From Eubacteriales bacterium (GTDB lineage Bacteria; Bacillota; Clostridia; Oscillospirales; CAG-272), in the NCBI GenBank assembly GCA_045535815.1, contig JAZSMJ010000014.1, positions 1,696-65,695 of the forward strand: a stretch of 64,000 bases of DNA, given 5' to 3'. Shown here piece after piece: positions 11,581-43,875 of the stretch. Numbering within the stretch: position 1 is the stretch's first letter; each line of letters opens with the position of its first letter. The position numbers were made by a program, and so were the translations under genes. The notes under the pieces were generated by a model that saw only the letters and a list, made by a program, of their open reading frames with translations, did not search any database and was not told the DNA's origin.

Positions 11581-11610
11581 AAAAGCCGCATTCTGTGAAT
11601 GCGGCTTTTA
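11581..11610 (-). terminator. Rho-independent terminator of the XRE-TPR gene
   Basis: Stem gccgcattc (11586-11594) pairs with gaatgcggc (11598-11606). A- and T-runs lie on both sides. Confidence 0.7.
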
Positions 11611-11694
11611 GTTATTATTTTAAGAGAAAAACTTTGTAGATTGATAACAGGAACTTACCTTTCCGTATGTTTGTATATGAGGTTTATGATTGAA

Positions 11695-12738
11695 TTATCT
11701 CTGCAATTTTTTTATTTGTCTTTCAACCTCTACTACAGCAGCATCCTCGTCGTTACATCCCCACTCACTCTTTAAACACGCAATAAGCCTGTCATACGTT
11801 TCAAATGCTTTCTCATGGTTTCCCAATATTTCATAAATGGTAGCAATACCTTGCAAAGCATCTGTGAACCTTGGCTTTTGATCATTTTCTGCTTCCCACG
11901 ACCGTTCATAATACACTATCGCTTTCTCGTACTCGCATTTGCGAGCATGATATTGTGCTTTTTCAAAGAGGAAACCGCTGTTGTATTCAAAGTCATGTAA
12001 AGCAACTTCCATTATGTCGTCTGCTTTTTTTACATCGTATTCGGCAAGTGCTATATATGCTTTGTATACCGGAATCAAGAATGGTTTATGAGCAGGCAGC
12101 GTTTGGCATATTTCAAGATATTTTTCCGCCTCTTTTGTTCGGTGATCTGCAATCAAATTGTCTATGATCTCATAATAGGGCAAGGGTGTTTCGGGAGCAA
12201 TCGTGTCATTTTCAATTATTTTCTTATAAAAATCAATAATATCCGTGTGGTTGGAGCAATTCCAATCCCATGCAACTGCACCTTCGGATTTTTGTAATAA
12301 CCATTGACAATCCTTGATATCAGGGGCTATTAAAATCGCTTGACGAGCATATTTACTTACCTTTCTTGAATCTGATTCCATACGATGATGGTAAAGACGT
12401 GCAATAAGGGACAAAATTTTTCTTTTGTCACCGTACTCGTCAATTTGGTTTTTTAAAAAGCTCTCGTATTCATTAAAAACACCGTCCGAAAATTCATCTT
12501 CAATATCAAGGCTTCTTTCTATACGCTGTAATTTTTGATCCGCGGTGAGGTCAAAAATTTCGTCAATGCTAACACCAAGTTCGCTTGATAGAAGTGGCAA
12601 AAGAGATATATCCGGCATAGTTATGCACGTTTCCCACTTTGATATTGATTGTGCACTGATTCCCAACGCCGCTCCAAGCTGCTCTTGCGTTAGCCCCGCT
12701 TTCAATCGCAACTGCTTAATTTTATTTCCAATATCCAT
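11695..12738 (-). CDS. XRE-family HTH transcriptional regulator with C-terminal TPR-like domain
   Basis: ATG 12738 follows GGAGGA. The N-terminus MDIGNKIKQLRLKAGLTQEQLGAALGISAQSISKWETC is a canonical HTH_3. The C-terminus has TPR-like helices (AIVYYERSWE..ALQGIATIYEILGNHEKAFETYDRLI). Confidence 0.8.
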   Translation of the reverse strand: MDIGNKIKQLRLKAGLTQEQLGAALGISAQSISKWETCITMPDISLLPLLSSELGVSIDEIFDLTADQKLQRIERSLDIEDEFSDGVFNEYESFLKNQIDEYGDKRKILSLIARLYHHRMESDSRKVSKYARQAILIAPDIKDCQWLLQKSEGAVAWDWNCSNHTDIIDFYKKIIENDTIAPETPLPYYEIIDNLIADHRTKEAEKYLEICQTLPAHKPFLIPVYKAYIALAEYDVKKADDIMEVALHDFEYNSGFLFEKAQYHARKCEYEKAIVYYERSWEAENDQKPRFTDALQGIATIYEILGNHEKAFETYDRLIACLKSEWGCNDEDAAVVEVERQIKKLQR

Positions 12739-12856
12739 ATGTAATATTCCTCCGGTTTGGTTTCTCAAGCACTTGATGTATTTATTATAGCATCAGAAAC
12801 TTGCAATATCAATAACGCATATTTATTATTAATTCACCCATTTGGAGAAAAATGCA

Positions 12857-13119
12857 TTTCCCGGATTGAATCCGTCTACAGATCTGAAATACACGGAATG
12901 CATCTACAAAATACCGTTCTACGCATCCCAATCACGCGTCAGCGTGTATATCATCAATTCCGAAGGAATTGCATATCATCCGCAACTTGTTGCGGTATAT
13001 CATCAAGCCGCAGGAAAGATGCACGCTGGCGCGTGATGAGATACAAGGACGGCAAGCCGTCCTTGATGATATACGCCGCACTTCGTGCGTCAATGATATA
13101 CCATACCTGCGGCTTGGAT
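12857..13119. repeat. Intergenic repeat element, long copy (same head and tail as 11458-11576 plus ~145 nt of extra hairpin units)
   Basis: The head at 12857-12920 and tail at 13061-13119 align with the short copy. The interior carries hairpins acgc-gtca-gcgt, aattcc-gaa-ggaatt, cgcaac-tt-gttgcg, cacgc-tggc-gcgtg and aaggacgg-caag-ccgtcctt. These are separated by GYATATCATC (12946, 12971, 12995) or its reverse complement RATGAKATAC (13035, 13065, 13092). Confidence 0.85.
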
Positions 13120-13146
13120 AAAAAAATTCGATGCTTTTGCATCGGA
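13120..13146 (-). terminator. Terminator downstream of tRNA-Gln
   Basis: On the minus strand, stem cgatgc pairs with gcatcg around an aaaa loop, followed by aattttttt. Confidence 0.6.
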
Positions 13147-13151
13147 TTTTT

Positions 13152-13228
13152 TGGCTGGGATAGCTGGACTCGAACCAGCGAAATGCAAGAGTCAAAGTCT
13201 TGTGCCTTACCACCTTGGCGATATCCCA
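13152..13228 (-). tRNA. tRNA-Gln (anticodon TTG), CCA encoded
   Basis: The minus strand reads TGGGATATCGCCAAGGTGGTAAGGCACAAGACTTTGACTCTTGCATTTCGCTGGTTCGAGTCCAGCTATCCCAGCCA. The acceptor stem is TGGGATA/TATCCCA. The anticodon stem is CAAGA/TCTTG with loop CTTTGAC. The T arm is GCTGG-TTCGAGT-CCAGC. Confidence 0.93.
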
Positions 13229-13313
13229 ATATGAACGTAGAAAATTATACCACAAAGTAGCTCTGCTGTCAATAAAAAAATGAGCTCAGCCTGCATTTTC
13301 ATCAGATAATATT

Positions 13314-14291
13314 TCAGTTTTGAATATAGATCTGCTGTTCTTTAATCATCGGATATGATACGAGCCTATCTGAGTCCAGCTTCTCCCTTTTCATATCCAC
13401 ACCGCATATATTGGCGTTTTCATACGTCTTATAATAGTATATCCCCTTCTCCGTGTCACAGCACGATGCATATACGGTTATCTCATATCTGCCGTCGTCC
13501 ATCATAACGCATCCTCTTATCTGCTCTACCGATCCCAAAATGTGAAAGAATTGATTTATGATAGCGGTATCGGTATTGTCTTTTGAAACAGAATTGAGCT
13601 TTACAAAGCTTGCACGAACAAATCTCGACTGTGACGAAAAATCCCCCGGCAGACCGATTGCCCCCATCCCTCTGCTGTATTCATAAAGGTCAATGCTTTT
13701 TGCAAAAGTGTTTTTAGCTCCGCATATGCTTAAATTGATATAGTTATTCAGGTTCATCATCTGGTAATCAAACGGTGGATTGTTGGTAAGCACTCCTACC
13801 TCATTTTTGTAGACCCTGATGCCATTTCGCAAAGGCTCTACCACTATCGAGGAGCTTTTGTCAGATATCATCCAATGAAGAGGTGTCAAAGGGAGATCTG
13901 AGCTGAAATCAACGTCAATTAAATTCAAGCCTTGCACTGCCTTTTCGGCTTCTTCAACGTTTGAACAGCTACCGAGTATATACGGGATAAATTCAAACGG
14001 AGCGATATTATCCTTGCCCTCTTTTTCCTTTTGGTAATAAGCATTACCGGGAAAATTAAGACCTGCTATCGCAAGTCCTTTTTCGTTTACTGCATCATAA
14101 TATAATGGATATCCATCCTGAACATAGGCAATGCCTATCATTGCAAAATGCTCTCGCATCTCTTTATGCTTTCTGAATACAAAAGGATATCTCCTCGGTG
14201 TCACAGTCACCGTTTCGTTATACGAATACTCAAGATCGAGCGTCCTTCCAAAAAAATGATTATTTGGTTTATAGCTTACTGCCGTGCACAT
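13314..14291 (-). CDS. Choloylglycine hydrolase family protein (bile salt hydrolase / linear amide C-N hydrolase, Ntn type)
   Basis: 325 aa beginning MCTAVSYKPNNHFFGRTLDLEYSYNE, with Cys2 as the N-terminal nucleophile typical of the family. Confidence 0.85.
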   Translation of the reverse strand: MCTAVSYKPNNHFFGRTLDLEYSYNETVTVTPRRYPFVFRKHKEMREHFAMIGIAYVQDGYPLYYDAVNEKGLAIAGLNFPGNAYYQKEKEGKDNIAPFEFIPYILGSCSNVEEAEKAVQGLNLIDVDFSSDLPLTPLHWMISDKSSSIVVEPLRNGIRVYKNEVGVLTNNPPFDYQMMNLNNYINLSICGAKNTFAKSIDLYEYSRGMGAIGLPGDFSSQSRFVRASFVKLNSVSKDNTDTAIINQFFHILGSVEQIRGCVMMDDGRYEITVYASCCDTEKGIYYYKTYENANICGVDMKREKLDSDRLVSYPMIKEQQIYIQN

Positions 14292-14344
14292 ATTTTTCTC
14301 CTTGCTATTCTCGTTATATTATGACCCACACGCCCAAAAATTAT

Positions 14345-14377
14345 AAAAAAACATCAAGCATTGCTTGATGTTTTTTC
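14345..14377. terminator. Bidirectional terminator
   Basis: Stem acatcaag (14351-14358) pairs with cttgatgt (14364-14371), flanked by an A-run and a T-run. Confidence 0.65.
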
Positions 14378-14473
14378 TTCAGAAACCTTTGCCCGACAAA
14401 AAATTTAACCTCAGTTTTTCTCAGCTGTTATTTATTTTAAACGTCAGTTAAAGAGATTCGCCTATCAACCCTT

Positions 14474-14965
14474 TTAGAACAGATCGGGAATGTCGATGGA
14501 AATGAACCAGTCATTACCTTCCTTCACAGCCTTAAACTCTACAAATTCAGATACAGATTCGTCCATAACACTCATATCCATAGTGCATGTTACAATTGCA
14601 GACTTGGGAGATTCCATTTCAATGCTCACGTCGGAAAATTTCATAATTTCATCGCCCAAAAGTCCGGTCAAGCCGAAAAGATCCGATAAACTTATGTCAT
14701 CCATAAATCCACCCATCAGCTCGCCCATAATTCCGCCCATAAATGAATCCACAAGCTTGAGAGATGTCTCAACCACATTCTTTGTTTTCTTATCAAGACA
14801 CGCCGTAACACCGTCTAAGTCGCCGGCGTTGTAGCATTCCGCAAATTCAGTTATTCTATCAAATATCTTTTCTTCATCGGTTCTACTGTCACAAGAGCAA
14901 AATGAAAACACAAGAAGAGATGACACAACTGCAAGCGCAATAATTCTGATAAACGTCTTTTTCAT
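14474..14965 (-). CDS. Putative lipoprotein, unknown function
   Basis: 163 aa. The signal peptide MKKTFIRIIALAVVSSLLVFSFCSCDS has a lipobox-like Cys. Confidence 0.6.
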   Translation of the reverse strand: MKKTFIRIIALAVVSSLLVFSFCSCDSRTDEEKIFDRITEFAECYNAGDLDGVTACLDKKTKNVVETSLKLVDSFMGGIMGELMGGFMDDISLSDLFGLTGLLGDEIMKFSDVSIEMESPKSAIVTCTMDMSVMDESVSEFVEFKAVKEGNDWFISIDIPDLF

Positions 14966-15014
14966 TTTTTATCCCCTTTAAACTTCATTGATATCTTTAG
15001 GCTAAGCCTGATGT

Positions 15015-15638
15015 TCATTTCGTATAGGTATTGTCCCAAATAACCTCCGGCTCCGGATATCCTTTATTTCTGCAAAGCATCAGACATATAGGCATTCCGA
15101 GCGGAACGAGCAATGATATTATAAAATATTTGAGTGCTTTTTCCGGAACAGTTGATTCAAACAACTTGAAGTAGCATATAGACGCACATATTGTCCACGC
15201 GGTAGCCACTGCTATCATAGCTATAATAAATGTGTAAAGCACTATCATAAATGCAATAGCACCGGGAATAACATCTGCCTCCGTTATTGCTTGGTTATAA
15301 GCCACCGTTATTGCAATAGAAACCGAATATACGATCAATGCAACTATCATCAAAAATGCCAAAGCCATTACTGCAATATTCATTGACAGCAATACGACGT
15401 TCCACTTTCTTTTGATTCCCTTGCGCTCATCGTATTCTCTTGCAATGTTTCCTATTGCCCATGAATTAGCCACCGGTATCCATGCAAGCCAGGGATACCT
15501 GATCTGTCTCCTCTTGCCTATCGTATGTATAGCAAGCGATGACATTACGTAAGAAGCAATAGATATTCCGACAGCACAAAGCTCAATAATAAGGAATATA
15601 ACAATACCTCCCAATCCAATAGCAACCACATCTCCCAT
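15015..15638 (-). CDS. Hypothetical integral membrane protein
   Basis: 207 aa with about 5 hydrophobic segments. No recognisable motif. Confidence 0.5.
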   Translation of the reverse strand: MGDVVAIGLGGIVIFLIIELCAVGISIASYVMSSLAIHTIGKRRQIRYPWLAWIPVANSWAIGNIAREYDERKGIKRKWNVVLLSMNIAVMALAFLMIVALIVYSVSIAITVAYNQAITEADVIPGAIAFMIVLYTFIIAMIAVATAWTICASICYFKLFESTVPEKALKYFIISLLVPLGMPICLMLCRNKGYPEPEVIWDNTYTK

Positions 15639-15823
15639 AATATATCCTCCTTTTAAGTCATAACAAAATATGGCTTATTGATTTAATTATAGCATAATTA
15701 TATGCCTCGGTCAACGATTTTTTGAGCATTGTTATATCATCTTGCATTTTTTTGCACCATTTGCTTTTTGATTGTATTTTATTAAATCTTATCAATATAT
15801 CCAAATGTTAAATTCGCTTACTC

Positions 15824-15852
15824 TTGACAATTTTTAACAAAAGGAGTATAAT
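15824..15852 (+). promoter_or_regulatory. Perfect consensus sigma-70 promoter of the rnf operon (TTGACA-17-TATAAT)
   Basis: TTGACA at 15824-15829, a 17-nt spacer, then TATAAT at 15847-15852, about 75 nt upstream of the rnfC ATG. Confidence 0.7.
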
Positions 15853-15928
15853 CTTATAGATAATACACTTTGCGATTTATGCGCAACATTTGTTGTATTT
15901 GCACAAAAAACACTAAAGGTATCTTCAT

Positions 15929-17248
15929 ATGACTTTCTTTCTTAACGGAATAAAAACACCTCACAGAAAAAACACGATAAATAAGCCAACCGTGCGTATG
16001 TCTGACGCATCATCGGTAACTATTCCGATGGTTATGCATATAGGCAAGCCGGCTATTCCCACGGTTAAAGTGGGGGATACGGTTAAGGTTGGTACAAAAA
16101 TTGCTCAGGCAGACGGAAGGTTATCGTCTAATATATATTCGAGTGTATCGGGAACAGTATCAAAATCTGTTGAATATTTGCTGTACAGCGGTGAGATAAC
16201 AACGGCATTGGTAATTGAATCGGACGGAGAAATGACGGTTGATCCCACAATCTGCCCTCCTTCTGTCAACAGCAAGGAAGAGCTTATATCGGCACTTGCC
16301 GAAAGCGGTATCGTAGGTCTTGGCGGTGCAGGATTTCCGGTTCGCGTCAAGCTCGACGTTGACGTCGAGCGTATTGATTATCTTATCATAAACGGTGCCG
16401 AATGCGAGCCATACGTTACAAGCGATACCGTAACCATGCTTTCAAAGGCTGACGATATGTCCTATGCTTTGCGTGAGCTAAGTCGCCTTATGGGAATAAA
16501 AAACGTAATTATAGGAATTGAAAGCAACAAGAAAAACGCAATCACACGCATGCGTGAAATGGCGTCTTCGATAAACGAATGCTCCGTTAGTGTAAGGTCG
16601 CTTCCCGCAGTCTACCCACAGGGTGGAGAAAAGGTGCTGATCTATCACACCACAAAGCGTAAGGTTGCCTCCGGAAAACTTCCTATTGACGTTGGCTGTA
16701 TAGTCCTCAACTGTACCACGCTTGCTTCCATAGGTGCATATCTTAAAACAGGTATGCCGCTTGTTGAAAAATGCGTTACGGTTGACGGAGGAGCAATAAA
16801 AAATCCTCAGAACGTAATAGCACCCATAGGCACTCATATCGAAGATCTGTTTGCCTTCTGCGGCGGTCTTACCGAGCAGCCCTCAAAAATTATTTCCGGT
16901 GGTCCTATGATGGGTATAACAATGCCCAACGCTTCATATCCGGTGATCAAAAATTCCAACGCTATCCTTGCGCTGACAGCCAAAGAGGCTAAGCTTCCCA
17001 AGGAGACCGCTTGTATTCGTTGCGGTAGCTGCACGAACACCTGCCCATTTGGTCTTGCCCCTGCCTCCGTGGCTGCTGCTTATGAAAAAAACGATCCGGA
17101 CGAGCTTAAGGCTCTTTCTGTTGAAACCTGTATGGAATGCGGCTGCTGCAGCTTCGTGTGTCCGGCAAACCGTCCCCTCGTACATATTAACAAGCTGTCC
17201 AAGAAGCTTCTGAGGGAATCACAGAAGAAGGAGGTAGCAAAACAGTGA
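15929..17248 (+). CDS. rnfC: Rnf electron transport complex subunit C
   Basis: 439 aa. It contains GLGGAGFPV, INGAECEPY and two 4Fe-4S motifs (CIRCGSCTNTCP, CMECGCCSFVCP). It is first in the rnfCDGEAB order. Confidence 0.93.
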   Translation: MTFFLNGIKTPHRKNTINKPTVRMSDASSVTIPMVMHIGKPAIPTVKVGDTVKVGTKIAQADGRLSSNIYSSVSGTVSKSVEYLLYSGEITTALVIESDGEMTVDPTICPPSVNSKEELISALAESGIVGLGGAGFPVRVKLDVDVERIDYLIINGAECEPYVTSDTVTMLSKADDMSYALRELSRLMGIKNVIIGIESNKKNAITRMREMASSINECSVSVRSLPAVYPQGGEKVLIYHTTKRKVASGKLPIDVGCIVLNCTTLASIGAYLKTGMPLVEKCVTVDGGAIKNPQNVIAPIGTHIEDLFAFCGGLTEQPSKIISGGPMMGITMPNASYPVIKNSNAILALTAKEAKLPKETACIRCGSCTNTCPFGLAPASVAAAYEKNDPDELKALSVETCMECGCCSFVCPANRPLVHINKLSKKLLRESQKKEVAKQ

Positions 17249-18165
17249 CTTCTTTAACAAAACTAACGGTCTCTCCGCATATTCACAGCGGAAGATCGAC
17301 GTCGGGTATTATGCGCGACGTTTTGATCTCGCTTCTTCCGGCTGCAATCGCAGGAATCGTGATTTTCGGCCTATGGTCTCTCTTACTTATATTTGTATGC
17401 ATTGCAAGCTGTGTGCTGTTTGAAGCTCTTTTTAATATCATCACAAAAAAAGAACAGACAGTCGGTGATCTTTCAGCGGCAGTCACAGGACTTCTTCTTG
17501 CCTTGAATCTTCCCGCAAACACTCCGATCTGGCAGTGCGTTGTCGGGTCGTTCTTTGCAATTATCGTTGTAAAATGCATATTTGGCGGTATCGGTAATAA
17601 CCTTGTCAATCCTGCCATAACCGCCCGTGTATTTATGCTGATTGCATTTGAATCGTTGGCAGTAGCATCATTTCCCGTTGATGCAGTTGCAGGCGCAACC
17701 CCGCTCGCTGCCGAAACGATGCCTTCACTAAAGGTATTATTTTTAGGGTATTACGGCGGAGCCATCGGTGAAACCTGCACGCTGGCTTTACTGATCGGCT
17801 TTGTTTATCTGTTGTGCCGTCGGGTTATCACCTGGCATATCCCCGTAGTATTTATTGGTACAGTATTCGCCTTCTCCTTCTTTATGGAAGGATTTGATGC
17901 ACTTGCCGCACTATCATTTGTAATGGCAGGAAGTGTGTTTCTTGGCGCAATTTTTATGGCAACCGATTACGTTACCTCACCTTCTACGTCGTGGGGCAAG
18001 ATTGTATTTGCTCTCGGTGCGGGCTTGATCACCTCCGTTATGCGCTATTTCAGCGTTTATCCGGAGGGAGTATCGTTTGCAATACTGTTTATGAACATAC
18101 TTACCCCATATATTGACATATGGACAAAGCATAAAGTATTTGCAAAAGGAGCGGTAAAAGCATGA
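17245..18165 (+). CDS. rnfD: Rnf complex subunit D
   Basis: 306-aa polytopic protein. Its GTGA start overlaps the rnfC stop. It contains GAIFMATDYVTSP (NqrB/RnfD-like flavinylation region). Confidence 0.9.
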   Translation: MTSLTKLTVSPHIHSGRSTSGIMRDVLISLLPAAIAGIVIFGLWSLLLIFVCIASCVLFEALFNIITKKEQTVGDLSAAVTGLLLALNLPANTPIWQCVVGSFFAIIVVKCIFGGIGNNLVNPAITARVFMLIAFESLAVASFPVDAVAGATPLAAETMPSLKVLFLGYYGGAIGETCTLALLIGFVYLLCRRVITWHIPVVFIGTVFAFSFFMEGFDALAALSFVMAGSVFLGAIFMATDYVTSPSTSWGKIVFALGAGLITSVMRYFSVYPEGVSFAILFMNILTPYIDIWTKHKVFAKGAVKA

Positions 18166-18701
18166 AGCAGAACGTCAAAAATCTTGCTGTGTTCGTTTGT
18201 ATCTGCACAGTGATAACCCTTCTTTTAGCCATTACAAATTCAATCACTGAACCAATTATAGAGCAAAATCAAAGAGATGCGTCAAATAAAGCACTGCTCG
18301 AGGTCATGCCCGAGGGCAAAGGCTTTGAAGCTGTGCCTTTAGCGTATTATGATCTGTCCTCAAACGTAACATACGTTTACCGCGAAACCTCCGGCAAAGG
18401 CTACGTAATCAAGCTGATCACTTCCGGATACGGAAGTGATATGGTCATTATGTGCGGTATCGACTCCAATTACATTGTCACCGGCGCTGTTTGTCTGTCT
18501 TCAAATGAAACTTTGGGAAAAGAAAAGACGTACGGTGAAAGCTTTAAGGGTAAAGATCTTGCCGGTGTTGACACCGTTGATACCGTCAGCAGTGCCACAA
18601 AAACAACGGCTGCATACAAAAATGCAATTAAAGATGCTATCAATACTGCAATCATTCTCGACAACACTGCATCACCGCGAATTTTGAAGGGAGGGGAATG
18701 A
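18162..18701 (+). CDS. rnfG: Rnf complex subunit G (FMN-binding)
   Basis: 179 aa with an N-terminal TM anchor and VDTVSSATKTTAAY (the S/T-G-A-T FMN attachment motif). Confidence 0.9.
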   Translation: MKQNVKNLAVFVCICTVITLLLAITNSITEPIIEQNQRDASNKALLEVMPEGKGFEAVPLAYYDLSSNVTYVYRETSGKGYVIKLITSGYGSDMVIMCGIDSNYIVTGAVCLSSNETLGKEKTYGESFKGKDLAGVDTVDTVSSATKTTAAYKNAIKDAINTAIILDNTASPRILKGGE

Positions 18702-18702
18702 A

Positions 18703-19389
18703 GTGAGTAAAAAGAGCTCTCTTTCCGTGCTCACAAACGGAATTTTAAAGGAAAATCCCGTTTTAGTTCTCATCCTTGGTACATGCCCCACTCTTGCAAC
18801 AACTACTACGGTAACGGGCGCACTTGGCATGGGTATTGCAGCATTATTGGTTTTGGTGTGCTCCAATATTTTTATTTCCATGCTCCGCAAGATAATTCCG
18901 GAAAGCATGCGTATACCCTGCTATATCGTAATCATAGCAGGATTCGTCACGATAGTTAAAATGCTCGTTCAGGCACATCTCCCCGATCTTTACGAAATGC
19001 TTGGAGTTTATCTCGATCTTATCACGGTAAACTGTATCATTTTAGGCCGTGCTGAAGTGTTTGCAAATAAAAATCCCGTTCTTGCCTCTGCACTTGACGG
19101 AATCGGGATGGGGCTTGGATTTACTATTGCTCTCGGAGCGATGGCAACAGTTCGAGAGGTATTTGGCACAGCCTCATTTGCAGGAATTTCCATTCCTTTT
19201 ATGGAAGAATTCAAGATCGCATTTTTTGCAAAAGCGCCCGGCGGACTTGTTGTCTACGGATTACTTATCGCTCTTATTTACGTCATAACCAAGGGTAAAT
19301 TTCCGAAGAAGACGTCATTTTCCTGCGAAGGATGTTCAAGGGCTGATGGCTGTGTGATCGGAGCTTGTTCAAAGAAGGGAGTTGAATGA
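18703..19389 (+). CDS. rnfE: Rnf complex subunit E
   Basis: 228 aa. NPVLVLILGTCPTLATTT is the RnfE/NqrD signature. Confidence 0.9.
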   Translation: MSKKSSLSVLTNGILKENPVLVLILGTCPTLATTTTVTGALGMGIAALLVLVCSNIFISMLRKIIPESMRIPCYIVIIAGFVTIVKMLVQAHLPDLYEMLGVYLDLITVNCIILGRAEVFANKNPVLASALDGIGMGLGFTIALGAMATVREVFGTASFAGISIPFMEEFKIAFFAKAPGGLVVYGLLIALIYVITKGKFPKKTSFSCEGCSRADGCVIGACSKKGVE

Positions 19390-19991
19390 TAATGCCGGAT
19401 TTTAAAGTACTTATAGTTATTATGCTTTCGGCCGTATTTGTTGATAATTACGTGCTTTGCCGTTTTTTAGGCATTTGTCCCTTCCTCGGCGTTTCAAAAA
19501 AAATTGACCAGGCATCCGGTATGGGCATTGCAGTAACCGTCGTTATGATTTTGGCAACTGCGGTTACATGGCCAATTCAGCATTTGGTGCTTAACCCGCT
19601 TAACATGAGATATTTACAGAATATCGTATTTATTTTAGTTATCGCAACCTTAGTGCAGATATTGGAAATGCTTTTAAAAAAGCTGTCGCCTTCTCTTTAT
19701 AAGGGACTCGGTGTATATCTTCCTCTTATCACCACAAACTGTGCTGTGCTCGGCGTAACCATCAACAATATACTCGACGGATATTCGTTTATCGAATCTA
19801 TGGCAAGCACGATCGGCTGCGGACTCGGTTTTCTTTTGGCAATGGTGCTCTTCTCCGGTCTGCGTTCACGAATAAATGAAACAAAAATTCCTATGCCCTT
19901 CCGCGGTCTTGCGGTCACACTTATAGCCGCATCATTTATTTCACTTGCCTTTATGGGATTCAGCGGTGTTGTTGAAAACATTTTTGCTTGA
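19386..19991 (+). CDS. rnfA: Rnf complex subunit A
   Basis: 201 aa. It contains NYVLCRFLGICPFLGVS and LPLITTNCAVLGV. Confidence 0.9.
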   Translation: MIMPDFKVLIVIMLSAVFVDNYVLCRFLGICPFLGVSKKIDQASGMGIAVTVVMILATAVTWPIQHLVLNPLNMRYLQNIVFILVIATLVQILEMLLKKLSPSLYKGLGVYLPLITTNCAVLGVTINNILDGYSFIESMASTIGCGLGFLLAMVLFSGLRSRINETKIPMPFRGLAVTLIAASFISLAFMGFSGVVENIFA

Positions 19992-20002
19992 CAGGTGACG
20001 AT

Positions 20003-20836
20003 ATGGAAATTTTAACCGCATTTATTTTTATGCTTGCCGTATCATTGGCAGCTGGACTTTTACTTATCGTTTTCTCGCATATTTTCGCTGTACAGACAGA
20101 TCCTTTGAAAAAAGCTGTGCGTGAATGCTTGCCCGGCATCAATTGCGGCGCTTGCGGATACAAGGGCTGCGATGATTACGCAAACGCATTGATCGAAGAC
20201 GCAGTCAAGCCCAACCTTTGCGTGCCCGGCACGCAGAAGACTGCCGACAGCATAAGTGAAATACTTGGAATTGAAAAAATTCAGATAAAGGACGTTGTTG
20301 CCTATATTGCATGCAACGGAAGCTGCGAGGCTACCTCTTCAACTGCAATCTACGAGGGTGTGACAAGCTGTCATGCGGCTTCTATGCTTTACGGCGGAAC
20401 AAACTCCTGCCGATACGGATGCCTTGGATTCGGAGACTGCGCTATAGCCTGTCCTTCTGATGCCATATACATTGCAAGCGGCATTGCTCACGTTGATACG
20501 TCACGCTGTGTCGGCTGTGAAATATGTAAAAACGTCTGCCCAAAACAGATAATAGTTATGCTCCCTCAACTGTCTGACGTTGCCGTTAAGTGCCAAAATA
20601 AGCAAAGCGGTGCTCTTGCCCGAAAGGCTTGTAAGAATGCCTGCATCGCCTGCAAAAAGTGCGAAAAGGCTTGTCCGAGCGGTGCGATTACCGTAAAGGA
20701 CAATCTTGCTAAGATCGATTACAGCGCATGCAACGGTTGTACTCTATGCGTTGACGTATGCCCGACCGGATGTCTGAAAAAAGTTAGGTTTTATGATCTT
20801 CCCGAAGATTATAGTGCCAAAGAGCTGAGCGAATAA
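20003..20836 (+). CDS. rnfB: Rnf complex subunit B (polyferredoxin)
   Basis: ATG 20003 follows AGGTGA (the ORF opens at 19988). It has an N-terminal TM segment, CGACGYKGCDDYA, and several CxxCxxCxxxCP clusters. Confidence 0.88.
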   Translation: MEILTAFIFMLAVSLAAGLLLIVFSHIFAVQTDPLKKAVRECLPGINCGACGYKGCDDYANALIEDAVKPNLCVPGTQKTADSISEILGIEKIQIKDVVAYIACNGSCEATSSTAIYEGVTSCHAASMLYGGTNSCRYGCLGFGDCAIACPSDAIYIASGIAHVDTSRCVGCEICKNVCPKQIIVMLPQLSDVAVKCQNKQSGALARKACKNACIACKKCEKACPSGAITVKDNLAKIDYSACNGCTLCVDVCPTGCLKKVRFYDLPEDYSAKELSE

Positions 20837-34923: not shown

Positions 34924-35613
34924 TTACTGAAGTATTTCGAATTTATAGCCTACGCCCCATACGGTCTTAAGAATCCACTTATCGGAAACACCTTCGAGTT
35001 TTTCACGCAGTCTCTTTACATGAACGTCAACGGTTCTTGAGTCGCCGAGGTAATCAAAACCCCAGACCTTATCAAGAAGCTGATCTCTTGTAAATACCTT
35101 ATTGTAATGAGAAGCAAGGAAATAGAGAAGCTCAAGTTCCTTAGGCGGAATATCAACCGACTTGCCGTTAAGCTTAAGCTCATATTTCTGAAGACTTATT
35201 TCTATATTATCAAATTTTATAACTTCCTCGTCATTCTGATTATCGTGTGCAGAGTAACGTCTGAGAACAGCCTTTACTCTTGCTGAAAGCTCCTTCATAT
35301 CAAAGGGCTTGCAAACGAAGTCATCAGCGCCAAGCTCAAGGCCGAGAACCTTGTCAAAAACCTCGTCCTTGGCGGTAATCATTATTACGGGCTATGTTGA
35401 AAGCACTCTGATCTCACGGCATACCTGCCAACCGTCTTTCTTGGGAAGCATAATATCAAGAAGAACAAGATCGGGCTCATACATTTTAAAGTAGCTGATT
35501 CCCTCAGCTCCGTCGTTTGCACACTTGATCTCATATCCTTCGTTTTCAAGATAGAGTCTTAACATATCACATATATTTACGTCATCGTCTACTATAAGTA
35601 TTTTTGTTCCCAT
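34924..35613 (-). pseudogene. OmpR/PhoB-family response regulator interrupted by one in-frame TAG (codon 74)
   Basis: Receiver domain MGTKILIVDDD..LVLLDIMLPKKDGW..REIRVLST-TAG(35392-35394)-PVIMITAKDE continues in the same frame into the winged-helix domain (..RTVDVHVKRLREKL..TVWGVGYKF). The track splits it into 35392..35613 and 34924..35382. Confidence 0.85.
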
Positions 35614-36010: not shown

Positions 36011-36030
36011 TGGTGTCAGAAATGGTGTCA
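36011..36030 (+). promoter_or_regulatory. Tandem direct repeat TGGTGTCA-N4-TGGTGTCA (site 1)
   Basis: TGGTGTCA at 36011-36018 and 36023-36030 (12-bp period). It lies in the intergenic region between the activase gene end and the response regulator start. Confidence 0.6.
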
Positions 36031-36075
36031 GGGCGTATATATAAGACTATTAAAAGAGTTTGACATAAAACACAT

Positions 36076-36112
36076 CAAAAAGCCCGCTATTGTTTTCGTA
36101 CAATAGCGGGCT
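36076..36112 (-). terminator. Rho-independent terminator of the GRE-activase operon (bidirectional shape)
   Basis: Stem agcccgctattg (36081-36092) pairs with caatagcgggct (36101-36112), flanked by A/T runs. Confidence 0.8.
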
Positions 36113-36140
36113 TTTTAATAAATATTTATTTCGTAAAAAA

Positions 36141-36971
36141 TTATGCTTTTTTTACCGTTTTTCTTGTTTTTGAGCCGATATAATCGATAATATCGTCAAT
36201 TTTTTCTCTTAGTAATGATATTTCAGGTTGCTGTTTCCCCAATGCTAAATACTTGCTCTCGCCAAATGTATGGTATGCCTCTATTTCAATCCCAATAATT
36301 GATGAAAAAGTATTTGCAAAGTGATAAATTTTGTCGTAATTTTCTTTTCTGTCATTATATCCGGGAATTATAGGGCAACGAAGAATTATATCTTTTTTCA
36401 ATTCATTCAGTAAAGCTAAATTTTCCAATATCAGTATATTGTCTACACCGGTATAGGTTTTGTGTAATTTTGGATTGCTTTCCTTAAAATCAAACAGAAA
36501 CAAATCTGTAAACTCTGCAATTTGCTTTATTTTATTTTTATCTGTGAAACCGCAGGTTTCTATTGCAGTATGCAGATTATTTTCTTTTGCCTTTTTCAAA
36601 ATTCCCAATGCAAACTCAAACTGAAAAAGTGGTTCTCCGCCCGAAAGTGTAATTCCGCCGCCTGAATTTTTGTAAAATTCATAGTCTTTCATTACCTCTG
36701 CAATTACTTCATCCGTTGTAACTGTTCTACCGCATATTTCTTTTGCACCATTTCGGCAGAGGAAATCTGTATTGTTTACAGTCAGATTTTCACATCTTCC
36801 GCAATGAGTGCATTTATCCGGATAAAACATTATTTGTCTATCCTGACTTTGACTTTCGGGATTGTGACACCACACACACTTTAGCGGACAACCTTTAAAA
36901 AACACAGTTGTGCGTATTCCAGGTCCGTCATTTATGCAAAACCTCTGAATGTTAAAAATAAATCCATACAT
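36141..36971 (-). CDS. Glycyl-radical enzyme activating protein (radical SAM)
   Basis: 276 aa. It contains RFCINDGPGIRTTVFFKGCPLKCVWCHNPE (CX3CX2C), an extra Cys cluster CTHCGRCENL, and GGITLSGGEP. Confidence 0.9.
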   Translation of the reverse strand: MYGFIFNIQRFCINDGPGIRTTVFFKGCPLKCVWCHNPESQSQDRQIMFYPDKCTHCGRCENLTVNNTDFLCRNGAKEICGRTVTTDEVIAEVMKDYEFYKNSGGGITLSGGEPLFQFEFALGILKKAKENNLHTAIETCGFTDKNKIKQIAEFTDLFLFDFKESNPKLHKTYTGVDNILILENLALLNELKKDIILRCPIIPGYNDRKENYDKIYHFANTFSSIIGIEIEAYHTFGESKYLALGKQQPEISLLREKIDDIIDYIGSKTRKTVKKA

Positions 36972-36981
36972 AATGAACCTC

Positions 36982-38976
36982 TTACTTATATTCGGTCCTG
37001 TTCAAAACAGCAATCTGCTGCCATTCGGGAAGACTTACAAAATATTCGCTAAAGCCGTATAGTCTTACTGTCAGGCTCTTGTATTTGTCGGGATTAACCA
37101 TTGCATCCTGCAAAGTGCTGCGGTCAATTACGCTTATTCCCACATGAAGCCCACCCATACTGAAATAAGTCAGTATAAGGGCTTTTAAAACATCCGATGA
37201 AACCTTTTGTGAAAAGGTCAAATTGAGTCCGCCGCCAGCAGTTCTCTCAAAGGGCAGTTTTGAAATACTTTTTAAAAGTGCTGTTATTCCATTCTTATCG
37301 GCACCATAAGTAGGTGACTGATTTTCGCTAAACGGTTCTCCGCTTTTTCTTCCGTCAGGCGAAGCTCCTATTTTGCCACACCAACTATTGTCACGTTCCA
37401 GAGAGTAAAATCCTGGAATGTTATATTCATTATCGCGCTTTTCAAGATTGTCAACTGCGTCAACCATAGCATTGCCTGCCATAGCTGTATAATTATCATT
37501 TTCACTGTCATTTCCGAATCTTTCGTAATTCAGTATTTCACTTCTAAGCTCTTCGTTATTTTCATAATTTTCATCAAGGATTTTCATAAATTCCGCGAAG
37601 GAATAACGTTTTTCTTTAAAAACAAGCTTATCCAGCACCATAAGTGAGTCGCCTATTGTTGCAACCCCAGGCAAAAATAAATTATTGAGGCAATACGCAC
37701 GGTCTTTGTCATATGCATATTTACATTCCATAGCTGTGTCGGTCAGGAGCAATGAGTCAAGTACAGCAGTCTGCCGCATATCCTCTATTGACTTTATACA
37801 GTGTTGGTTTTCCATATCCTTTGACAACGCCGCAGTGTAGTCCTTTAAAATTTCTTCTATTGAAGTATAATTTTTACTGTGCAGAACTTCAAGAAAAATC
37901 TGTACAGTCGGAACATAATAATCGCCCCTCGGGTTATGGTAATGCAAATCAAAAGTACAGCAAGCCGAATAAGTAAAATCTTTCGCCACATCAGGCTTTA
38001 CACCCCGGTCTGTAAGACATTTGAAGACGGTGTCATAATTATATATATTCACCTTGTCTGTTAAAACCGCAAGCGACTTAAATACCTGCTCGGTAAACTC
38101 TGCATCAGCGTCCGGTTTTAAACGGACAACTATTTCCGGCTGTGCCATGTTATTAAGTTCTGCTGCCTTCAGGCATACAATCGAAAATTTGTTTGGGAAT
38201 TCTCCGCCTATATTGACATATTGCTTGGATGCCTGACACAAGACCGGTTTTACGTTATAGTTGTGCGTACATCTTCCGCAAATTTCATTTGTTTTAATGA
38301 AGAATCCGGCAAGAAGTTCTGTAAGCTCCGTTTCAGTCTTGCCGTCGGCAAGAGCTTTTTCGTAAAATGGGAGCATATATTTGTCAAAGTTTCCGAATGC
38401 ATAATCACGAGAACCGATATAACAACTGAGTATCATATGCAAAATCCATATTCCCTGCAAAGCAGAATAGAAATCATACGCAGGTTCATAAGGAACAACC
38501 CGAAGTGCTTCTGCCATTTTATGAAATCCTGCTTTTTGGGCTTCTTCCGCATAGCGCAGGCAGTAAGCACGCACTGCTTCTGCCACAATTACAGCGTTTT
38601 CCGCAAAGCTTTTAGATTCGGCATCGCCCTTTTTTCTTGCAATATCATTTATTTCGGAAACTATACCTTTTAATCCGCAGTTCAAAACTTTTCCGTAATC
38701 CGGACTCAGATGTCCTGCTGAATTCAAAAGACAGTTTGCTATTTTCAGACCTTCATAGGGTAAAGCTTCAACAACACGTCCGGCAAAATAGTCATCTTCA
38801 TTTATGGGTACGGAAACCTCGCTTAACAGCTTTGAAAAAATAATTGCAAATTTGTCCGGTTTGTCATAATCAGCCATTTCAGTTTCCAGGCGTCCTAAAA
38901 TTTCATCTCTTTCAATAAAACACGCCTTATTATCTGTTTCAAATATAAACTCTTTTAAATTTGTCAAATTTCCCAT
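36982..38976 (-). CDS. Short PFL-type glycyl radical enzyme (about 664 aa), substrate unknown
   Basis: The C-terminal glycyl radical motif is SLTVRLYGFSEYFVSL. A Cys-Cys dyad lies in TYSACCTFDL (checked on DNA: tcg gct tgc tgt act). The start is placed at ATG 38976 (GGAGAA SD) rather than 38991. Confidence 0.8.
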   Translation of the reverse strand: MGNLTNLKEFIFETDNKACFIERDEILGRLETEMADYDKPDKFAIIFSKLLSEVSVPINEDDYFAGRVVEALPYEGLKIANCLLNSAGHLSPDYGKVLNCGLKGIVSEINDIARKKGDAESKSFAENAVIVAEAVRAYCLRYAEEAQKAGFHKMAEALRVVPYEPAYDFYSALQGIWILHMILSCYIGSRDYAFGNFDKYMLPFYEKALADGKTETELTELLAGFFIKTNEICGRCTHNYNVKPVLCQASKQYVNIGGEFPNKFSIVCLKAAELNNMAQPEIVVRLKPDADAEFTEQVFKSLAVLTDKVNIYNYDTVFKCLTDRGVKPDVAKDFTYSACCTFDLHYHNPRGDYYVPTVQIFLEVLHSKNYTSIEEILKDYTAALSKDMENQHCIKSIEDMRQTAVLDSLLLTDTAMECKYAYDKDRAYCLNNLFLPGVATIGDSLMVLDKLVFKEKRYSFAEFMKILDENYENNEELRSEILNYERFGNDSENDNYTAMAGNAMVDAVDNLEKRDNEYNIPGFYSLERDNSWCGKIGASPDGRKSGEPFSENQSPTYGADKNGITALLKSISKLPFERTAGGGLNLTFSQKVSSDVLKALILTYFSMGGLHVGISVIDRSTLQDAMVNPDKYKSLTVRLYGFSEYFVSLPEWQQIAVLNRTEYK

Positions 38977-38999
38977 AAAAATGTTCTCCATAATATACT

Positions 39000-39027
39000 T
39001 AATGTGTAATAAATATATTACACATTA
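39000..39027. promoter_or_regulatory. Perfect 12-4-12 palindrome TAATGTGTAATA-aata-TATTACACATTA overlapping the GRE promoter -10/TSS (candidate operator)
   Basis: The left arm at 39000-39011 is the exact reverse complement of the right arm at 39016-39027. Confidence 0.6.
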
Positions 39028-39040
39028 GTCAAGTTGTCAA
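39012..39040 (-). promoter_or_regulatory. Promoter of the GRE-activase operon (TTGACA-17-TATATT)
   Basis: The minus strand reads TTGACA (39040-39035), a 17-nt spacer, then TATATT (39017-39012). Confidence 0.6.
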
Positions 39041-39142: not shown

Positions 39143-39161
39143 TGGTGTCAAATTGGTGTCA
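39143..39161 (+). promoter_or_regulatory. Tandem direct repeat TGGTGTCA-N3-TGGTGTCA (site 2)
   Basis: TGGTGTCA at 39143-39150 and 39154-39161 (11-bp period). It lies between the HAD gene terminator and the GRE promoter. Confidence 0.6.
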
Positions 39162-39254: not shown

Positions 39255-40043
39255 TCACTTCAGATCCTCATATATTTTTCTGATATTATCGTATATGAAT
39301 TCAGGCTTTACCTCGCTTTTTTCGAGGTCCTCAACTGTTCCCTCGCCGCTTAACACGAAAACCGTACTTATACCTGCATTAACGCCGCAGGCTATATCTG
39401 TATAAAGTCTATCTCCCAAAAGCACCGTTTCTTCCTTTGAGAAGCCGGTTGAATTCATTGCAAGATATGCCATTTCGGGCTCAGGCTTACCAATAAACTT
39501 TGGACGCTTTTTTGTTGCATTGTAAATTATGTCGGCAAAAGATCCGCAATCAGGAACAAAGCCATACCACGTAGGGCATACCCAGTCAGGATTGGTTGCA
39601 ATATAGTCTATATTTCCTCCAAGGAGAATACAGGCATCCTCAAGCTTATTGAAAGTAAGCTCTGTGTCATTAGAAAGACACAGACAATCTATTCCATCTT
39701 CTCTTTGGGTAGTTACGCAAAGACCTGCATCTTTCAACTGCTTTACAAAGGATACTGTACCGAATGCATATATTTTTTTGTACCTTTTTTCCTTTAAATA
39801 AAGAATTGTAGCATCGGTAGAAGTCAAAAAGTCATCGGCTGTAGAGTTAATTCCCATTTTTTCGAGCTTTTCAATATACTTATCAACTCCTTTTGAAGAG
39901 TTATTCGTAAGGAAAATATATCTTCCTCCAATTGATTTTACGTAGCTCAAAAAGTCAAGCGTTCCGTCAAAGATATCGTTATCAAGATATATTGTTCCGT
40001 CCATGTCAAGTAAAAACAGTCGTTTGCCTTTTAAATCACTCAT
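39255..40043 (-). CDS. HAD-IIA family phosphatase (NagD-like sugar/glycerol-phosphate phosphatase)
   Basis: ATG 40043 overlaps the glpP end by 8 nt. Motif I is FLLDMDGTIY, motif II is LTNNSS, motif III is GKP, and motif IV is LLGDRLYTDI. Confidence 0.8.
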   Translation of the reverse strand: MSDLKGKRLFLLDMDGTIYLDNDIFDGTLDFLSYVKSIGGRYIFLTNNSSKGVDKYIEKLEKMGINSTADDFLTSTDATILYLKEKRYKKIYAFGTVSFVKQLKDAGLCVTTQREDGIDCLCLSNDTELTFNKLEDACILLGGNIDYIATNPDWVCPTWYGFVPDCGSFADIIYNATKKRPKFIGKPEPEMAYLAMNSTGFSKEETVLLGDRLYTDIACGVNAGISTVFVLSGEGTVEDLEKSEVKPEFIYDNIRKIYEDLK

Positions 40044-40587
40044 CGCTATTCTCCCAAAATTCCTGCTTTCCTGTAGAAATAGCCGTTGCTCCACATGAAA
40101 GCGCTTCATTTATTTCTTCTTTTGTTTCTATAAGTCCGCCTGCCACAATAGGCGTTTTTAATTCATCCTTTAATCTGCTTATTATTTTAGAAAGTGTTCC
40201 GGGCATTATTTCTATCATATCAGCCTTTGACATTTTTGCCGATTCAACTGTCGTAGTTACAGATTGAGAGTCAAGCAGAAAAAACCTTTGAACTGTAAAC
40301 AATCCTTCTTTTTTTGCCAGCTTGATTATGTTCGTTCTGGTGCTTATTATGCCGTCTACTCCCTGTTCTTTTACGAATTTTATCCCATATTCATCTTTCC
40401 CTATGCCCTCTGCCAGATCAAGATGTATTAGGATTTTTTTACCTGCAGAATGAACGATTTCCGTATGTTTTTTTATATCCAATATATTTGGCGAAAGCAT
40501 AAAAATTATATTAACCTTCGACTTTGACGCAACCAGAAGCTCTTCATCACTTCTTGCTGCCGCAATTATCTTAAATCTACTCATCAT
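40036..40587 (-). CDS. glpP: Glycerol-3-phosphate-responsive antiterminator GlpP
   Basis: 183 aa. It contains IHLDLAEGIGKDEYGIKFV, DGIISTRTNIIKLAKKEG, QRFFLLDSQS, IEIMPG and PIVAGGLI, the G3P_antiterm family pattern. Confidence 0.88.
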   Translation of the reverse strand: MMSRFKIIAAARSDEELLVASKSKVNIIFMLSPNILDIKKHTEIVHSAGKKILIHLDLAEGIGKDEYGIKFVKEQGVDGIISTRTNIIKLAKKEGLFTVQRFFLLDSQSVTTTVESAKMSKADMIEIMPGTLSKIISRLKDELKTPIVAGGLIETKEEINEALSCGATAISTGKQEFWENSDE

Positions 40588-43633: not shown

Positions 43634-43681
43634 ACAAAAAAAGACGCATCAAAATAAACATACGTTTATTTTGATACGTCT
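43634..43681 (-). terminator. Leader terminator (likely GlpP antitermination target) upstream of the G3P dehydrogenase gene
   Basis: The minus strand carries an 18-bp stem agacgtatcaaaataaac/gtttattttgatgcgtct followed by ttttttt. It lies between the promoter and ATG 43614. Confidence 0.7.
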
Positions 43682-43702
43682 CCAAATCTCTGTATCATTA
43701 AT

Positions 43703-43731
43703 ATTATAACATAAAAGAATATTATTGTCAA
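43703..43731 (-). promoter_or_regulatory. Perfect consensus promoter of the glp operon (TTGACA-17-TATAAT)
   Basis: The minus strand reads TTGACA (43731-43726), a 17-nt spacer, then TATAAT (43708-43703). Confidence 0.7.
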
Positions 43732-43856: not shown

Positions 43857-43875
43857 CGGTGTCAAGTTGGTGTCA
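43857..43875 (+). promoter_or_regulatory. Tandem direct repeat CGGTGTCA-N3-TGGTGTCA (site 3)
   Basis: GGTGTCA at 43858-43864 and 43869-43875 (11-bp period). It lies inside the predicted ychF 5' UTR and ~130 bp upstream of the divergent glp promoter. Confidence 0.6.

Follow-up and report, generated by a model that had tools for sequence, protein, structure and literature searches.

Glycyl radical enzymes (GREs) carry out difficult anaerobic chemistry, and those of gut microbes make trimethylamine, p-cresol and hydrogen sulfide. Among the GREs other than ribonucleotide reductases, only pyruvate formate-lyase (PFL; PflB in Escherichia coli) and TdcE have been described as having two Cys residues on the Cys loop, and all characterised GRE eliminases and isomerases keep a CXE motif, the Glu of which hydrogen-bonds a hydroxyl of the substrate (PMC13450708). 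In glycerol dehydratase, His164 has been proposed as the proton donor to the leaving hydroxyl. The isomerases PflD and YbiW act on 1,5-anhydrohexitol-6-phosphates and feed an aldolase, which splits the product into glyceraldehyde-3-phosphate and a small carbonyl compound. According to the same 2026 review of the superfamily (Imrich et al., PMC13450708), the current bottleneck of the field is to find functions for unannotated GRE clades.

The locus analysed here lies in a 64,000-nucleotide stretch of contig JAZSMJ010000014.1 of an Eubacteriales bacterium (the whole stretch is hereafter called the window) and consists of an intact two-gene cassette encoding a GRE of 664 aa and its activase (Table 1). 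This GRE very probably belongs to an unnamed clade of eliminase-like GREs and is not a PFL. The explanation that best accounts for the whole of the data, to which we assign a probability of about 0.45, is that the cassette encodes a working compact GRE and its activase, which would cleave a C-O bond of a sugar or polyol, and that its partner genes and regulator have been lost in this genome.

A first-pass annotation of the window had described a 664-aa GRE with a glycyl radical motif and an adjacent Cys-Cys pair, and both direct translation and Pfam (PFL-like, 5e-52; Gly_radical, PF01228, 2.5e-18) bear this out. The protein shows the features of the superfamily, namely a Gly_radical domain, the catalytic Cys, a predicted barrel fold and an adjacent activase gene. 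A search of 5.8 billion proteins returned 352 relatives, and the best 120 of these all measure 663-700 aa and share 61% identity or more with the query; where their sources name them, they are called 'hypothetical protein', with the exception of one JGI entry named formate C-acetyltransferase. A scan of the GTDB species representatives yielded 66 loci, all of them in Clostridia (Oscillospiraceae, Acutalibacteraceae, a few 'Lachnospiraceae' and Syntrophomonadales). At least 57 gut Clostridia species carry the full-length GRE, the samples with the family come from the gut of sheep, goat, deer, rabbit, chicken and human, and there is one cultured carrier, Ructibacterium gallinarum DSM 107454 (L032), whose GRE-activase pair lies at 10001-12007 and 12017-12910. 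For the analysis of conservation, the family was defined as the 180 sequences at least 42% identical to the query within a 312-sequence MAFFT alignment. Their lengths range from 661 to 722 aa (median 669), and clustering at 50% shows that short GREs (670-750 aa) grade down to ~33% identity, beyond which enzymes of the ordinary length of ~800 aa set in. The shortness of the query is due to the absence of ~65 N-terminal residues and to internal deletions, with residue 90 corresponding to profile position 153. The earlier description holds in these respects: the enzyme lacks about 100 aa relative to other GREs, its RLYG motif is divergent, and no substrate has been assigned to it.

None of the described GRE classes accommodates this protein. 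The best NCBIfam model is that of the broad PFL2-3 subfamily, TIGR01774 (249 bits against a cutoff of 678), and the best-scoring equivalog is NF007437 (PRK09983, formate C-acetyltransferase; 200 bits against 1109). The GRE also scores far below every cutoff of the NCBIfam equivalogs for HypD, HpsG, HpfG, CutC, IAD and HPAD, and the PFL model TIGR01255 gives 68 bits against a cutoff of 994. In the Protein Data Bank (PDB), the best sequence relatives are glycerol dehydratase (1R8W, 8e-57), PflD (8YJO, 8e-50) and HplG, with identities of 18-23%, and PFL appears at 6e-18, through its C-terminal domain only. An AlphaFold2 model built from 66 family sequences (pLDDT 91.4, pTM 0.91) predicts the GRE barrel, and it matches ten-stranded barrel structures with query-based TM-scores (TMq) of 0.80-0.86. 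The top Foldseek matches are glycerol/propanediol dehydratases, PflD, HplG, YbiW, HypD, CutC and C-S lyases; the first 44 are all eliminases, isomerases or the PFL2 of A. fulgidus, and PFL is missing from the top 50. It is thus strongly supported that the family is nearest to the eliminases cleaving C-O, C-N or C-S bonds and to the PflD/YbiW isomerases, and not to PFL. The GRE did not cluster with any characterised class. The compact family is not described in the curated libraries (Pfam, NCBIfam), in PDB structures or in the searchable literature, nor in the 2026 review.

The Cys-Cys pair had led the first-pass annotation to propose PFL-like thiyl chemistry. If the protein were a short formate-lyase, the Cys-Cys thiyl would add to a 2-keto acid, giving an acyl-enzyme from which the acyl group would be transferred to CoA. 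Several features recall such an enzyme: the pair is found on the Cys loop of 175 of the 180 members, two loop Cys are otherwise known only from PFL and TdcE (PMC13450708), the local A-C-C is the same as in the I-A-C-C of PflB, and an invariant Arg350, located 11 residues after C339, loosely recalls Arg435 of PflB, located 16 residues after C419. However, the register is shifted by one. HMMER pairwise alignments with glycerol dehydratase and PflD place a-C-c-t on g-C-v-e, which makes C339 the universal catalytic Cys, and the column of C339 is Cys not only in the 180 family members, but also in the 132 other GREs, i.e., in all 312 aligned sequences. The same result is obtained from the spacing D[FY]-x4-C, as the sixth residue counted from D-[YF] is C419 in PflB (D-D-Y-A-I-A-C-C-V-S), C433 in glycerol dehydratase and C339 in the query (K-D-F-T-Y-S-A-C-C-T). 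Ala338 occupies the position of C418 of PflB, and C340 that of Val420. Since every GRE needs the Cys equivalent to C419, and C340 is replaced in some members (by Ser in four and by Thr in one), this equivalent is C339 and not C340. The remaining 132 GREs mostly show Val or Asn at the place of C340. This register is based on the alignments to eliminases, on the D[FY] anchor and on conservation, as the alignment with PflB does not reach the Cys loop: by BLASTP and hhalign only the last ~140-210 residues of PflB align (the last 213 columns when the family profile is used), including a glycyl-radical domain that is 39% identical over 141 aa. The region of PflB that holds Arg176, Arg435 and the CoA site is therefore unaligned with the query, and Arg350, although invariant, stands at a different spacing. 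As judged from these alignments, the Cys-Cys pair of the family is not the C418/C419 dyad of PFL. Phosphotransacetylase, acetate kinase and formate channel genes do not recur in the neighbourhoods of the family GREs either, and with full-length similarity to PFL also missing, a formate-lyase is considered very improbable.

The conservation pattern strongly supports C339 as the predicted site of the thiyl radical and Gly641 as the predicted site of the glycyl radical. Gly641 is present in 180/180 sequences, Tyr640 in 178/180 and Leu639 in 170/180, so that R-L-Y-G-F is essentially fixed; it represents a variant of the R-V-x-G-[FYW] motif with Leu for Val and with Tyr at the position taken by Ala, Ser or Thr in other GREs. 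His89, which is invariant in the family, provides the counterpart of the eliminase/isomerase His (His164 of glycerol dehydratase). Position 343 is Asp in 174 sequences and Glu in six, Arg350 is conserved in all 180, and residue 352 is Glu or Asp in 179 of them. In the alignment with PflD, residue 352 falls on the Asp of G-L-H-D, a column that we take to be that of the substrate-binding Asp447 of glycerol dehydratase. The CXE motif is absent: the loop reads C339-C340-T341, and position 341 is Thr in 166 members, Ser in six, Asn in five and Ala in three, never Glu, the residue found in this column in 69 of the other 132 GREs. In several distant relatives (e.g., P0207, P0219, P0230 and P0248) the radical Gly is substituted by Ala, Thr or Ser (VRVAAYS, VRVATYS, VRVASFV); these proteins match the aminoacyl radical enzymes reported in 2024.

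Glycerol/propanediol dehydratases (1R8W, 5I2G, 9RCO) are the best matches in both sequence and fold. The likeness comprises the barrel, the position of the catalytic Cys, the G-H-x-S-x-D-Y motif, an acidic residue ~13 positions after the Cys and an adjacent activase of the TIGR02494 type. In contrast, the window GRE is ~120 aa shorter and only 20-23% identical to them, holds Thr instead of the Glu of CXE and Cys instead of the Val in between, and shows RLYGF instead of RVAGY; moreover, it is not accompanied by microcompartment genes or by aldehyde-processing partner genes of the pdu/dha type. PflD and YbiW also rank high (TMq 0.81-0.85) and share a pathway logic with the family, in that they act on a sugar phosphate and an aldolase splits the product; in the operons of the family the GRE is paired with a kinase and an aldolase. 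They differ in that they keep CXE (PMC13450708) and are 765-810 aa long, and the aldolase encoded in the family operons is of the DeoC type, which points to a 2-deoxy-aldose phosphate and not to a 1-deoxy-ketose phosphate. The likeness to PflB and TdcE is limited to the two adjacent loop Cys and the glycyl-radical domain; the pair is placed here at PflB positions 419/420 and not 418/419, its second Cys is variable, no alignment is obtained for the remainder of the protein, and PflA has no counterpart to the Cys-rich insert of the activase.

Clues about the substrate come from the genetic context. Open reading frames (ORFs) were called in the window and in 66 related loci and clustered by BLASTP, and neighbours were counted in the 57 species-level loci with a full-length GRE (600-720 aa), i.e., the window and 56 others. 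The recurrent neighbours are nearly all encoded on the same strand and upstream of the GRE. The activase is a neighbour in 40+ of the 57 loci, an IclR regulator in 20, and a 327-aa SGL/NHL beta-propeller protein, usually immediately upstream, also in 20; less frequent are an FGGY kinase (17/57), a Zn-dependent dehydrogenase (Zn-ADH, 15/57), DeoC (12/57), a GH43-like protein (8/57), a DeoR regulator on the opposite strand (7/57) and the glycerophosphodiesterase GDPD (6/57). Metagenome contigs with independent gene calls show IclR, DeoC, ADH, FGGY, SGL/NHL, GRE and activase in this same order, and the GRE ends such an iclR-DeoC-ADH-kinase-NHL operon in about a third of the genomes. DeoC scores 233 bits on the deoxyribose-phosphate aldolase equivalog TIGR00126 (cutoff 117), while the FGGY kinase is barely above the cutoff of the xylulokinase model TIGR01312 XylB (396 bits against 380). 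The NHL propeller retrieved from the PDB only designed propellers, PknD and weak lactonase matches.

On the basis of the likeness to eliminases, the operon with a kinase and DeoC, and the precedent of PflD/YbiW and their aldolase, we tentatively propose that the family performs a radical C-O cleavage (a dehydration or a ring-opening isomerisation) on a sugar or polyol derived from a pentose and probably phosphorylated, a proposal held at clearly less than even odds. The product would be a 2-deoxy-aldose phosphate, to be split by DeoC into glyceraldehyde-3-phosphate and acetaldehyde. One possible scheme would start with the phosphorylation of a pentitol to pentitol-5-phosphate by the FGGY kinase; the GRE would dehydrate it across C1-C2 to 2-deoxypentose-5-phosphate, DeoC would cleave the latter, and the Zn-dehydrogenase would reduce the acetaldehyde. 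Such a pathway would be redox-neutral and would employ four of the five conserved enzymes. A search of the literature for links of GREs to IclR/aldolase/kinase operons, deoxyribose-phosphate aldolase, pentitols or deoxyribose returned nothing relevant.

Several observations weigh against this proposal. Position 341 is occupied by Thr, whereas every characterised eliminase or isomerase keeps Glu there, and the chemistry of a Thr-bearing family may differ from that of any known dehydratase. The near-conserved C340, the Tyr640 preceding the radical Gly and the invariant Arg350 are not accounted for by the proposal. About two thirds of the loci are without the aldolase set. The kinase of the operon is of the FGGY type, whereas known deoxyribokinases are of the PfkB type, and the pentitol scheme gives no role to the NHL propeller, to the GH43-like protein or to a second GRE that accompanies some family members. 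As for the window itself, a tblastn search of its 64 kb with representatives of 16 recurrent neighbours produced no match beyond GRE and activase, an HtrA-like protease and ychF, so that the context holds no partner genes that would point to the substrate in this host.

The second GRE is found in nine loci (Table 1, and also L013, L014, L027 and L033). It belongs to the same operon, is short as well (~685-712 aa), 23-25% identical to the query, and holds an N-S-C-M-G Cys loop, without CXE, and a V-R-I-G-G-Y-S glycine motif. It directly follows iclR in seven of the nine loci (those whose contig extends to the upstream gene), and where activases are visible, the two GREs have a single one in common. 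A bolder view, which we regard as doubtful, is that the family with the ACCT loop and this second GRE with the NSCMG loop would form a new, Glu-free catalytic class and a new anaerobic route of gut Clostridia that converts a plant-derived pentose, pentitol or glycoside into a 2-deoxy-sugar phosphate for DeoC, with novel roles for C340, Tyr640 and Arg350. Another arrangement was observed in L009, a metagenome-assembled genome (MAG) from water-deer caecum: three GRE-activase pairs stand in a row at 10001-20800 (GREs of 680, 762 and 710 aa), and after each of them comes a gene for an AraC-type regulator in divergent orientation, forming a small island of uncharacterised GREs.

The activase gene of the window begins 10 nt after the stop codon of the GRE. 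Its product scores 302.6 bits on TIGR02494 (cutoff 174) and holds the CX3CX2C motif (C28/C32/C35), and it is strongly supported by these motifs that it could cleave S-adenosylmethionine and place the radical on Gly641. The first-pass annotation had noted an extra Cys cluster typical of activases other than PflA. A Cys-rich insert of ~30 residues is indeed present, but it is shortened: it contains five Cys (C54, C57, C60, C72 and C80) instead of the eight of a full domain, in which two CX2CX2CX3C motifs bind two auxiliary [4Fe-4S] clusters. The activases of the family form a series in this regard, since those of ~300 aa have both full motifs (e.g., L056 12000-12899, 299 aa), those of ~276 aa, among them the activase of the window, have the shortened insert with five Cys, and those of ~254-259 aa are without it (e.g., L018 7491-8261, 256 aa).

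The signals that surround the two genes are collected in Table 1. The GRE probably starts at the second in-frame ATG (38976), because a GGAG ribosome-binding site (RBS) lies 9 nt upstream of it and the homologues are 663-665 aa long; the first ATG (38991), which overlaps this RBS and would give 669 aa, is probably unused. The promoter, the perfect palindrome and the terminator reported earlier are all present in the sequence, and within 3.4 kb no inverted repeat other than the palindrome and the terminator reaches 11 nt with its arms spaced by 40 nt or less.

Table 1. Positions of the cassette, its control signals and bordering repeats in the window, and of the second GRE in related loci.
Feature	Locus	Coordinates	Strand	Details
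GRE coding sequence	window	36982..38976	minus	664 aa + stop; second in-frame ATG as start
GRE ORF from first ATG	window	36982..38991	minus	669 aa
RBS GGAG	window	38986..38989	minus	9 nt to ATG 38976; junction of a 1245-bp deletion immediately upstream
His89 codon	window	38710..38712	minus	in G-H-x-S-x-D-Y; aligns with glycerol dehydratase His164
SAGHLS	window	38721-38704	minus	direct translation
Cys339/Cys340 codons	window	37957..37962	minus	Cys loop S-A-C-C-T-F-D; C339 predicted thiyl-radical Cys, C340 directly after
SACCTF	window	37968-37951	minus	direct translation
Gly641 codon	window	37054..37056	minus	predicted radical glycine in TVRLYGFSEYF; translation and alignment
RLYGFS	window	37065-37048	minus	direct translation
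Activase (radical SAM GRE-activating enzyme)	window	36141..36971	minus	276 aa; Pfam Radical_SAM + Fer4_12
Promoter TTGACA-17-TATATT	window	39012..39040	minus	sigma-70 type; 11/12 positions match (consensus scan); homologous to iclR promoter of related loci
Palindrome TAATGTGTAATA-TATT-TATTACACATTA	window	39000..39027	unstranded	perfect 12-4-12; overlaps -10 box and likely transcription start
Intrinsic terminator of cassette	window	36073..36120	minus	20-pair stem + T-run (consensus scan)
Terminator of upstream HAD gene	window	39225-39202		separate from cassette (consensus scan)
Tandem direct repeat TGACACCAATTTGACACC	window	39144..39161	minus	upstream cassette edge; conserved in L008
Tandem direct repeat TGACACCATTTCTGACACC	window	36012..36030	minus	downstream cassette edge
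Tandem direct repeat TGACACCA-N3/4-TGACACC	window	43858-43875	minus	edge of glp-HAD block
Second GRE	L022	2814-4871
Second GRE	L029	1921-3978
Second GRE	L030	2244-4301
Second GRE	L032	2779-4842
Second GRE	L065	3668-5725

The history of the cassette can be followed by comparison with its nearest relative, L008, a Clostridia MAG from sheep rectum. Both share 98.7% DNA identity in a stretch of 2144 bp that spans the GRE and the beginning of the activase gene, and over the whole cassette region (L008 9985-12380, window 38992-35993) the identity is 95-98.7%; the synonymous divergence (dS) of the GRE is 0.029. In contrast, the flanking genes are well diverged, with 72% identity for ychF and 78% for a response-regulator gene, which implies that the cassette entered a syntenic site recently, by lateral transfer or recombination. 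L008 shows ychF (opposite strand), followed by a 200-bp region, iclR, an NHL-propeller fragment, the GRE and the activase. The 200-bp region, 88% identical to window 39201-38999, holds before iclR the TGACACC repeat, a TTGACA promoter and the palindrome with two mismatches. The window lacks 1245 bp corresponding to L008 8740-9984, so that the iclR leader, ending in ...AAGTATATTA, is joined directly to GGAGAACATTTTTATG, which represents the RBS and start of the GRE itself. Since more distant genomes have the whole operon, this change is a loss and not a gain. L008 keeps a 105-aa N-terminal fragment of the propeller, and in L009 (90% identical) iclR is still present, along with a C-terminal propeller fragment of 92 aa; these short ORFs were also considered as a small accessory subunit encoded upstream of the GRE, a candidate rejected once they were recognised as propeller fragments. 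In addition, the activase of L008 has suffered a 604-bp internal deletion (L008 ~12127-12130, equivalent to window 36245-36849). Judged from these remains, the operon is decaying in the lineage of L008, L009 and the window.

The first-pass annotation had assigned the palindrome to the cassette as its own operator. The palindrome is real, but by its homology it belongs to the promoter/operator of iclR, a gene that this genome has lost by deletion. Because the homologous element precedes iclR in L008, we read it as the probable operator of the deleted IclR. The iclR promoters across the family have in common TTGACA, a TATAnT box, a TTATWAC just after it and an AAATATATWAC near the RBS, and these shared elements would fit autoregulation. 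Expression of the cassette is probably no longer controlled by the substrate, and would have become constitutive or lost its induction, depending on the sign of IclR action. The palindrome was also considered as a glp-related operator, and this candidate was discarded owing to its homology to the iclR promoter regions.

These losses raise the question of whether the cassette is an orphan remnant, recently arrived, deprived of its partners and heading to pseudogene status with no role in the host. The deletion of iclR and the propeller gene, the propeller fragments and the truncated activase of L008, the signs of recent transfer, the missing partner genes in the window and the nonsense codon of the adjacent response-regulator gene would all agree with this fate, as would the ratio of non-synonymous to synonymous substitution rates (dN/dS), which on the short branch to L008 is 0.24 (12 synonymous and 11 non-synonymous changes) and thus higher than the 0.12 obtained against L009. 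On the other hand, both ORFs are intact and keep all the residues that are invariant in the family, and the promoter, the RBS and the terminator are in good order. The GRE-activase pair occurs alone in many other genomes, which indicates that it can stand by itself, and the partners may lie outside the 64 kb. We therefore regard a mere remnant as unlikely. A functional-looking pair that appears to be under purifying selection is strongly supported by the dN/dS of 0.12 against L009, a value shared by the GRE and the activase.

The neighbours upstream of the cassette are a different matter. Pfam confirms the genes reported there, which encode DAO/BFD, Pyr_redox_2, DUF1667, GlpP (PF04309, 2e-60) and HAD-IIA hydrolase proteins, i.e., glycerol-3-phosphate dehydrogenase genes, glpP and a HAD-IIA phosphatase gene. 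Their proximity had suggested a functional link of the GRE to C3 or phosphorylated-polyol metabolism. The GRE would then dehydrate glycerol-1-phosphate, glycerol-3-phosphate or a short polyol phosphate, or eliminate its phosphate, and the adjacent phosphatase and dehydrogenase genes would process the product. The invariant Arg350 would suit an anionic substrate, and a phosphate leaving group might make the Glu of CXE dispensable. Nevertheless, neighbours of the glpA, glpP or HAD-IIA type are found in none of the 56 other loci, these window proteins being singletons in the clustering, and a terminator and a promoter separate the two units. Furthermore, the glp-HAD block (~43.85-39.2 kb) is flanked on either side by a ~50-bp sequence that ends in TGACACCA-N3-TGACACC and of which L008 has a single copy at that spot; the block is therefore an insertion relative to L008, and the adjacency of glp and GRE is specific to the window genome. 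In this form, the proposed link to the glp/HAD genes is not supported.

A weaker version of the phosphorylated-polyol idea survives in other members. Four loci of the subclade to which the window belongs, with GREs 81-86% identical to its own (L010, L011, L012 and L039), have a DeoR regulator gene and a gene similar to those of glycerol-1-phosphate (G1P) dehydrogenases upstream, three of them with an HAD-IIB hydrolase gene too. In L010 (86% identical), both the G1P-dehydrogenase-like and the HAD-IIB genes precede the full partner set, while in L011, L012 and L039 the former is directly upstream of the GRE, with HAD-IIB also present in L012 and L039; the G1P-dehydrogenase-like protein scores 191 bits on NF002022, below its cutoff. 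GDPD is encoded just downstream of the GRE in the six loci that have it, all from a 46-52% identical subclade. However, the commonest partners (the pentose-type kinase, DeoC and the Zn-dehydrogenase) are unfit for a C3 substrate, and C-S lyases keep the Glu despite their good leaving group (PMC13450708). A polyol-phosphate enzyme of this kind is considered quite unlikely.

Within the glp-HAD block, a perfect 12/12 promoter of the glp operon (43703-43731) is followed by a 20-pair terminator-like leader hairpin (43640-43683; both on the minus strand), a layout expected for GlpP-mediated antitermination. The longest ORF of the HAD-IIA gene overlaps the end of glpP by 74 nt (40036-40109); its true start is probably an internal ATG (MSDLKGKRLF…), as the domain match begins at residue 30-32.

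The window contains three copies of the TGACACCA-N3/4-TGACACC repeat (with a period of 11-12 bp), where none would be expected, and its copies in L008 (8580-8597 and 12343-12361) bracket the high-identity cassette. These repeats could be boundaries of the cassette or of its recombination, or sites for the adjacent response regulator of the OmpR type; their reverse complement, GGTGTCA-N4-GGTGTCA, resembles the layout of a Pho box. An iteron-like run of six TGACAC units was seen in L025 (9351-9440). Downstream of the cassette, the window encodes a response regulator of the OmpR family (34924-35612) with an in-frame TAG at 35392-35394 on the minus strand (…REIRVLST*PVIMITAK…). A nonsense mutation or else an error of sequencing probably accounts for this codon; a recoding of TAG was rejected in favour of a point mutation, the simpler reading, as L008 has Lys at that position and TAG is a rare stop that ends only one of the 44 long ORFs of the window.

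The reading we prefer for the window is still that of a working compact GRE and activase acting on a sugar or polyol, deprived here of its partners and regulator. As an orphan cassette with misleading neighbours, the window copy is of less value than other members of the family. The clade as a whole breaks two generalisations of the 2026 review, namely that two-Cys loops are found only in PFL and TdcE and that eliminase-like GREs keep CXE. The series of activases, from two auxiliary clusters to none, represents a natural experiment on the need for these clusters. While the GRE superfamily is well known, a compact clade that departs from its class-defining motifs is new, and the operon context, the cultured host R. 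gallinarum DSM 107454 and the activase series make its function directly testable.

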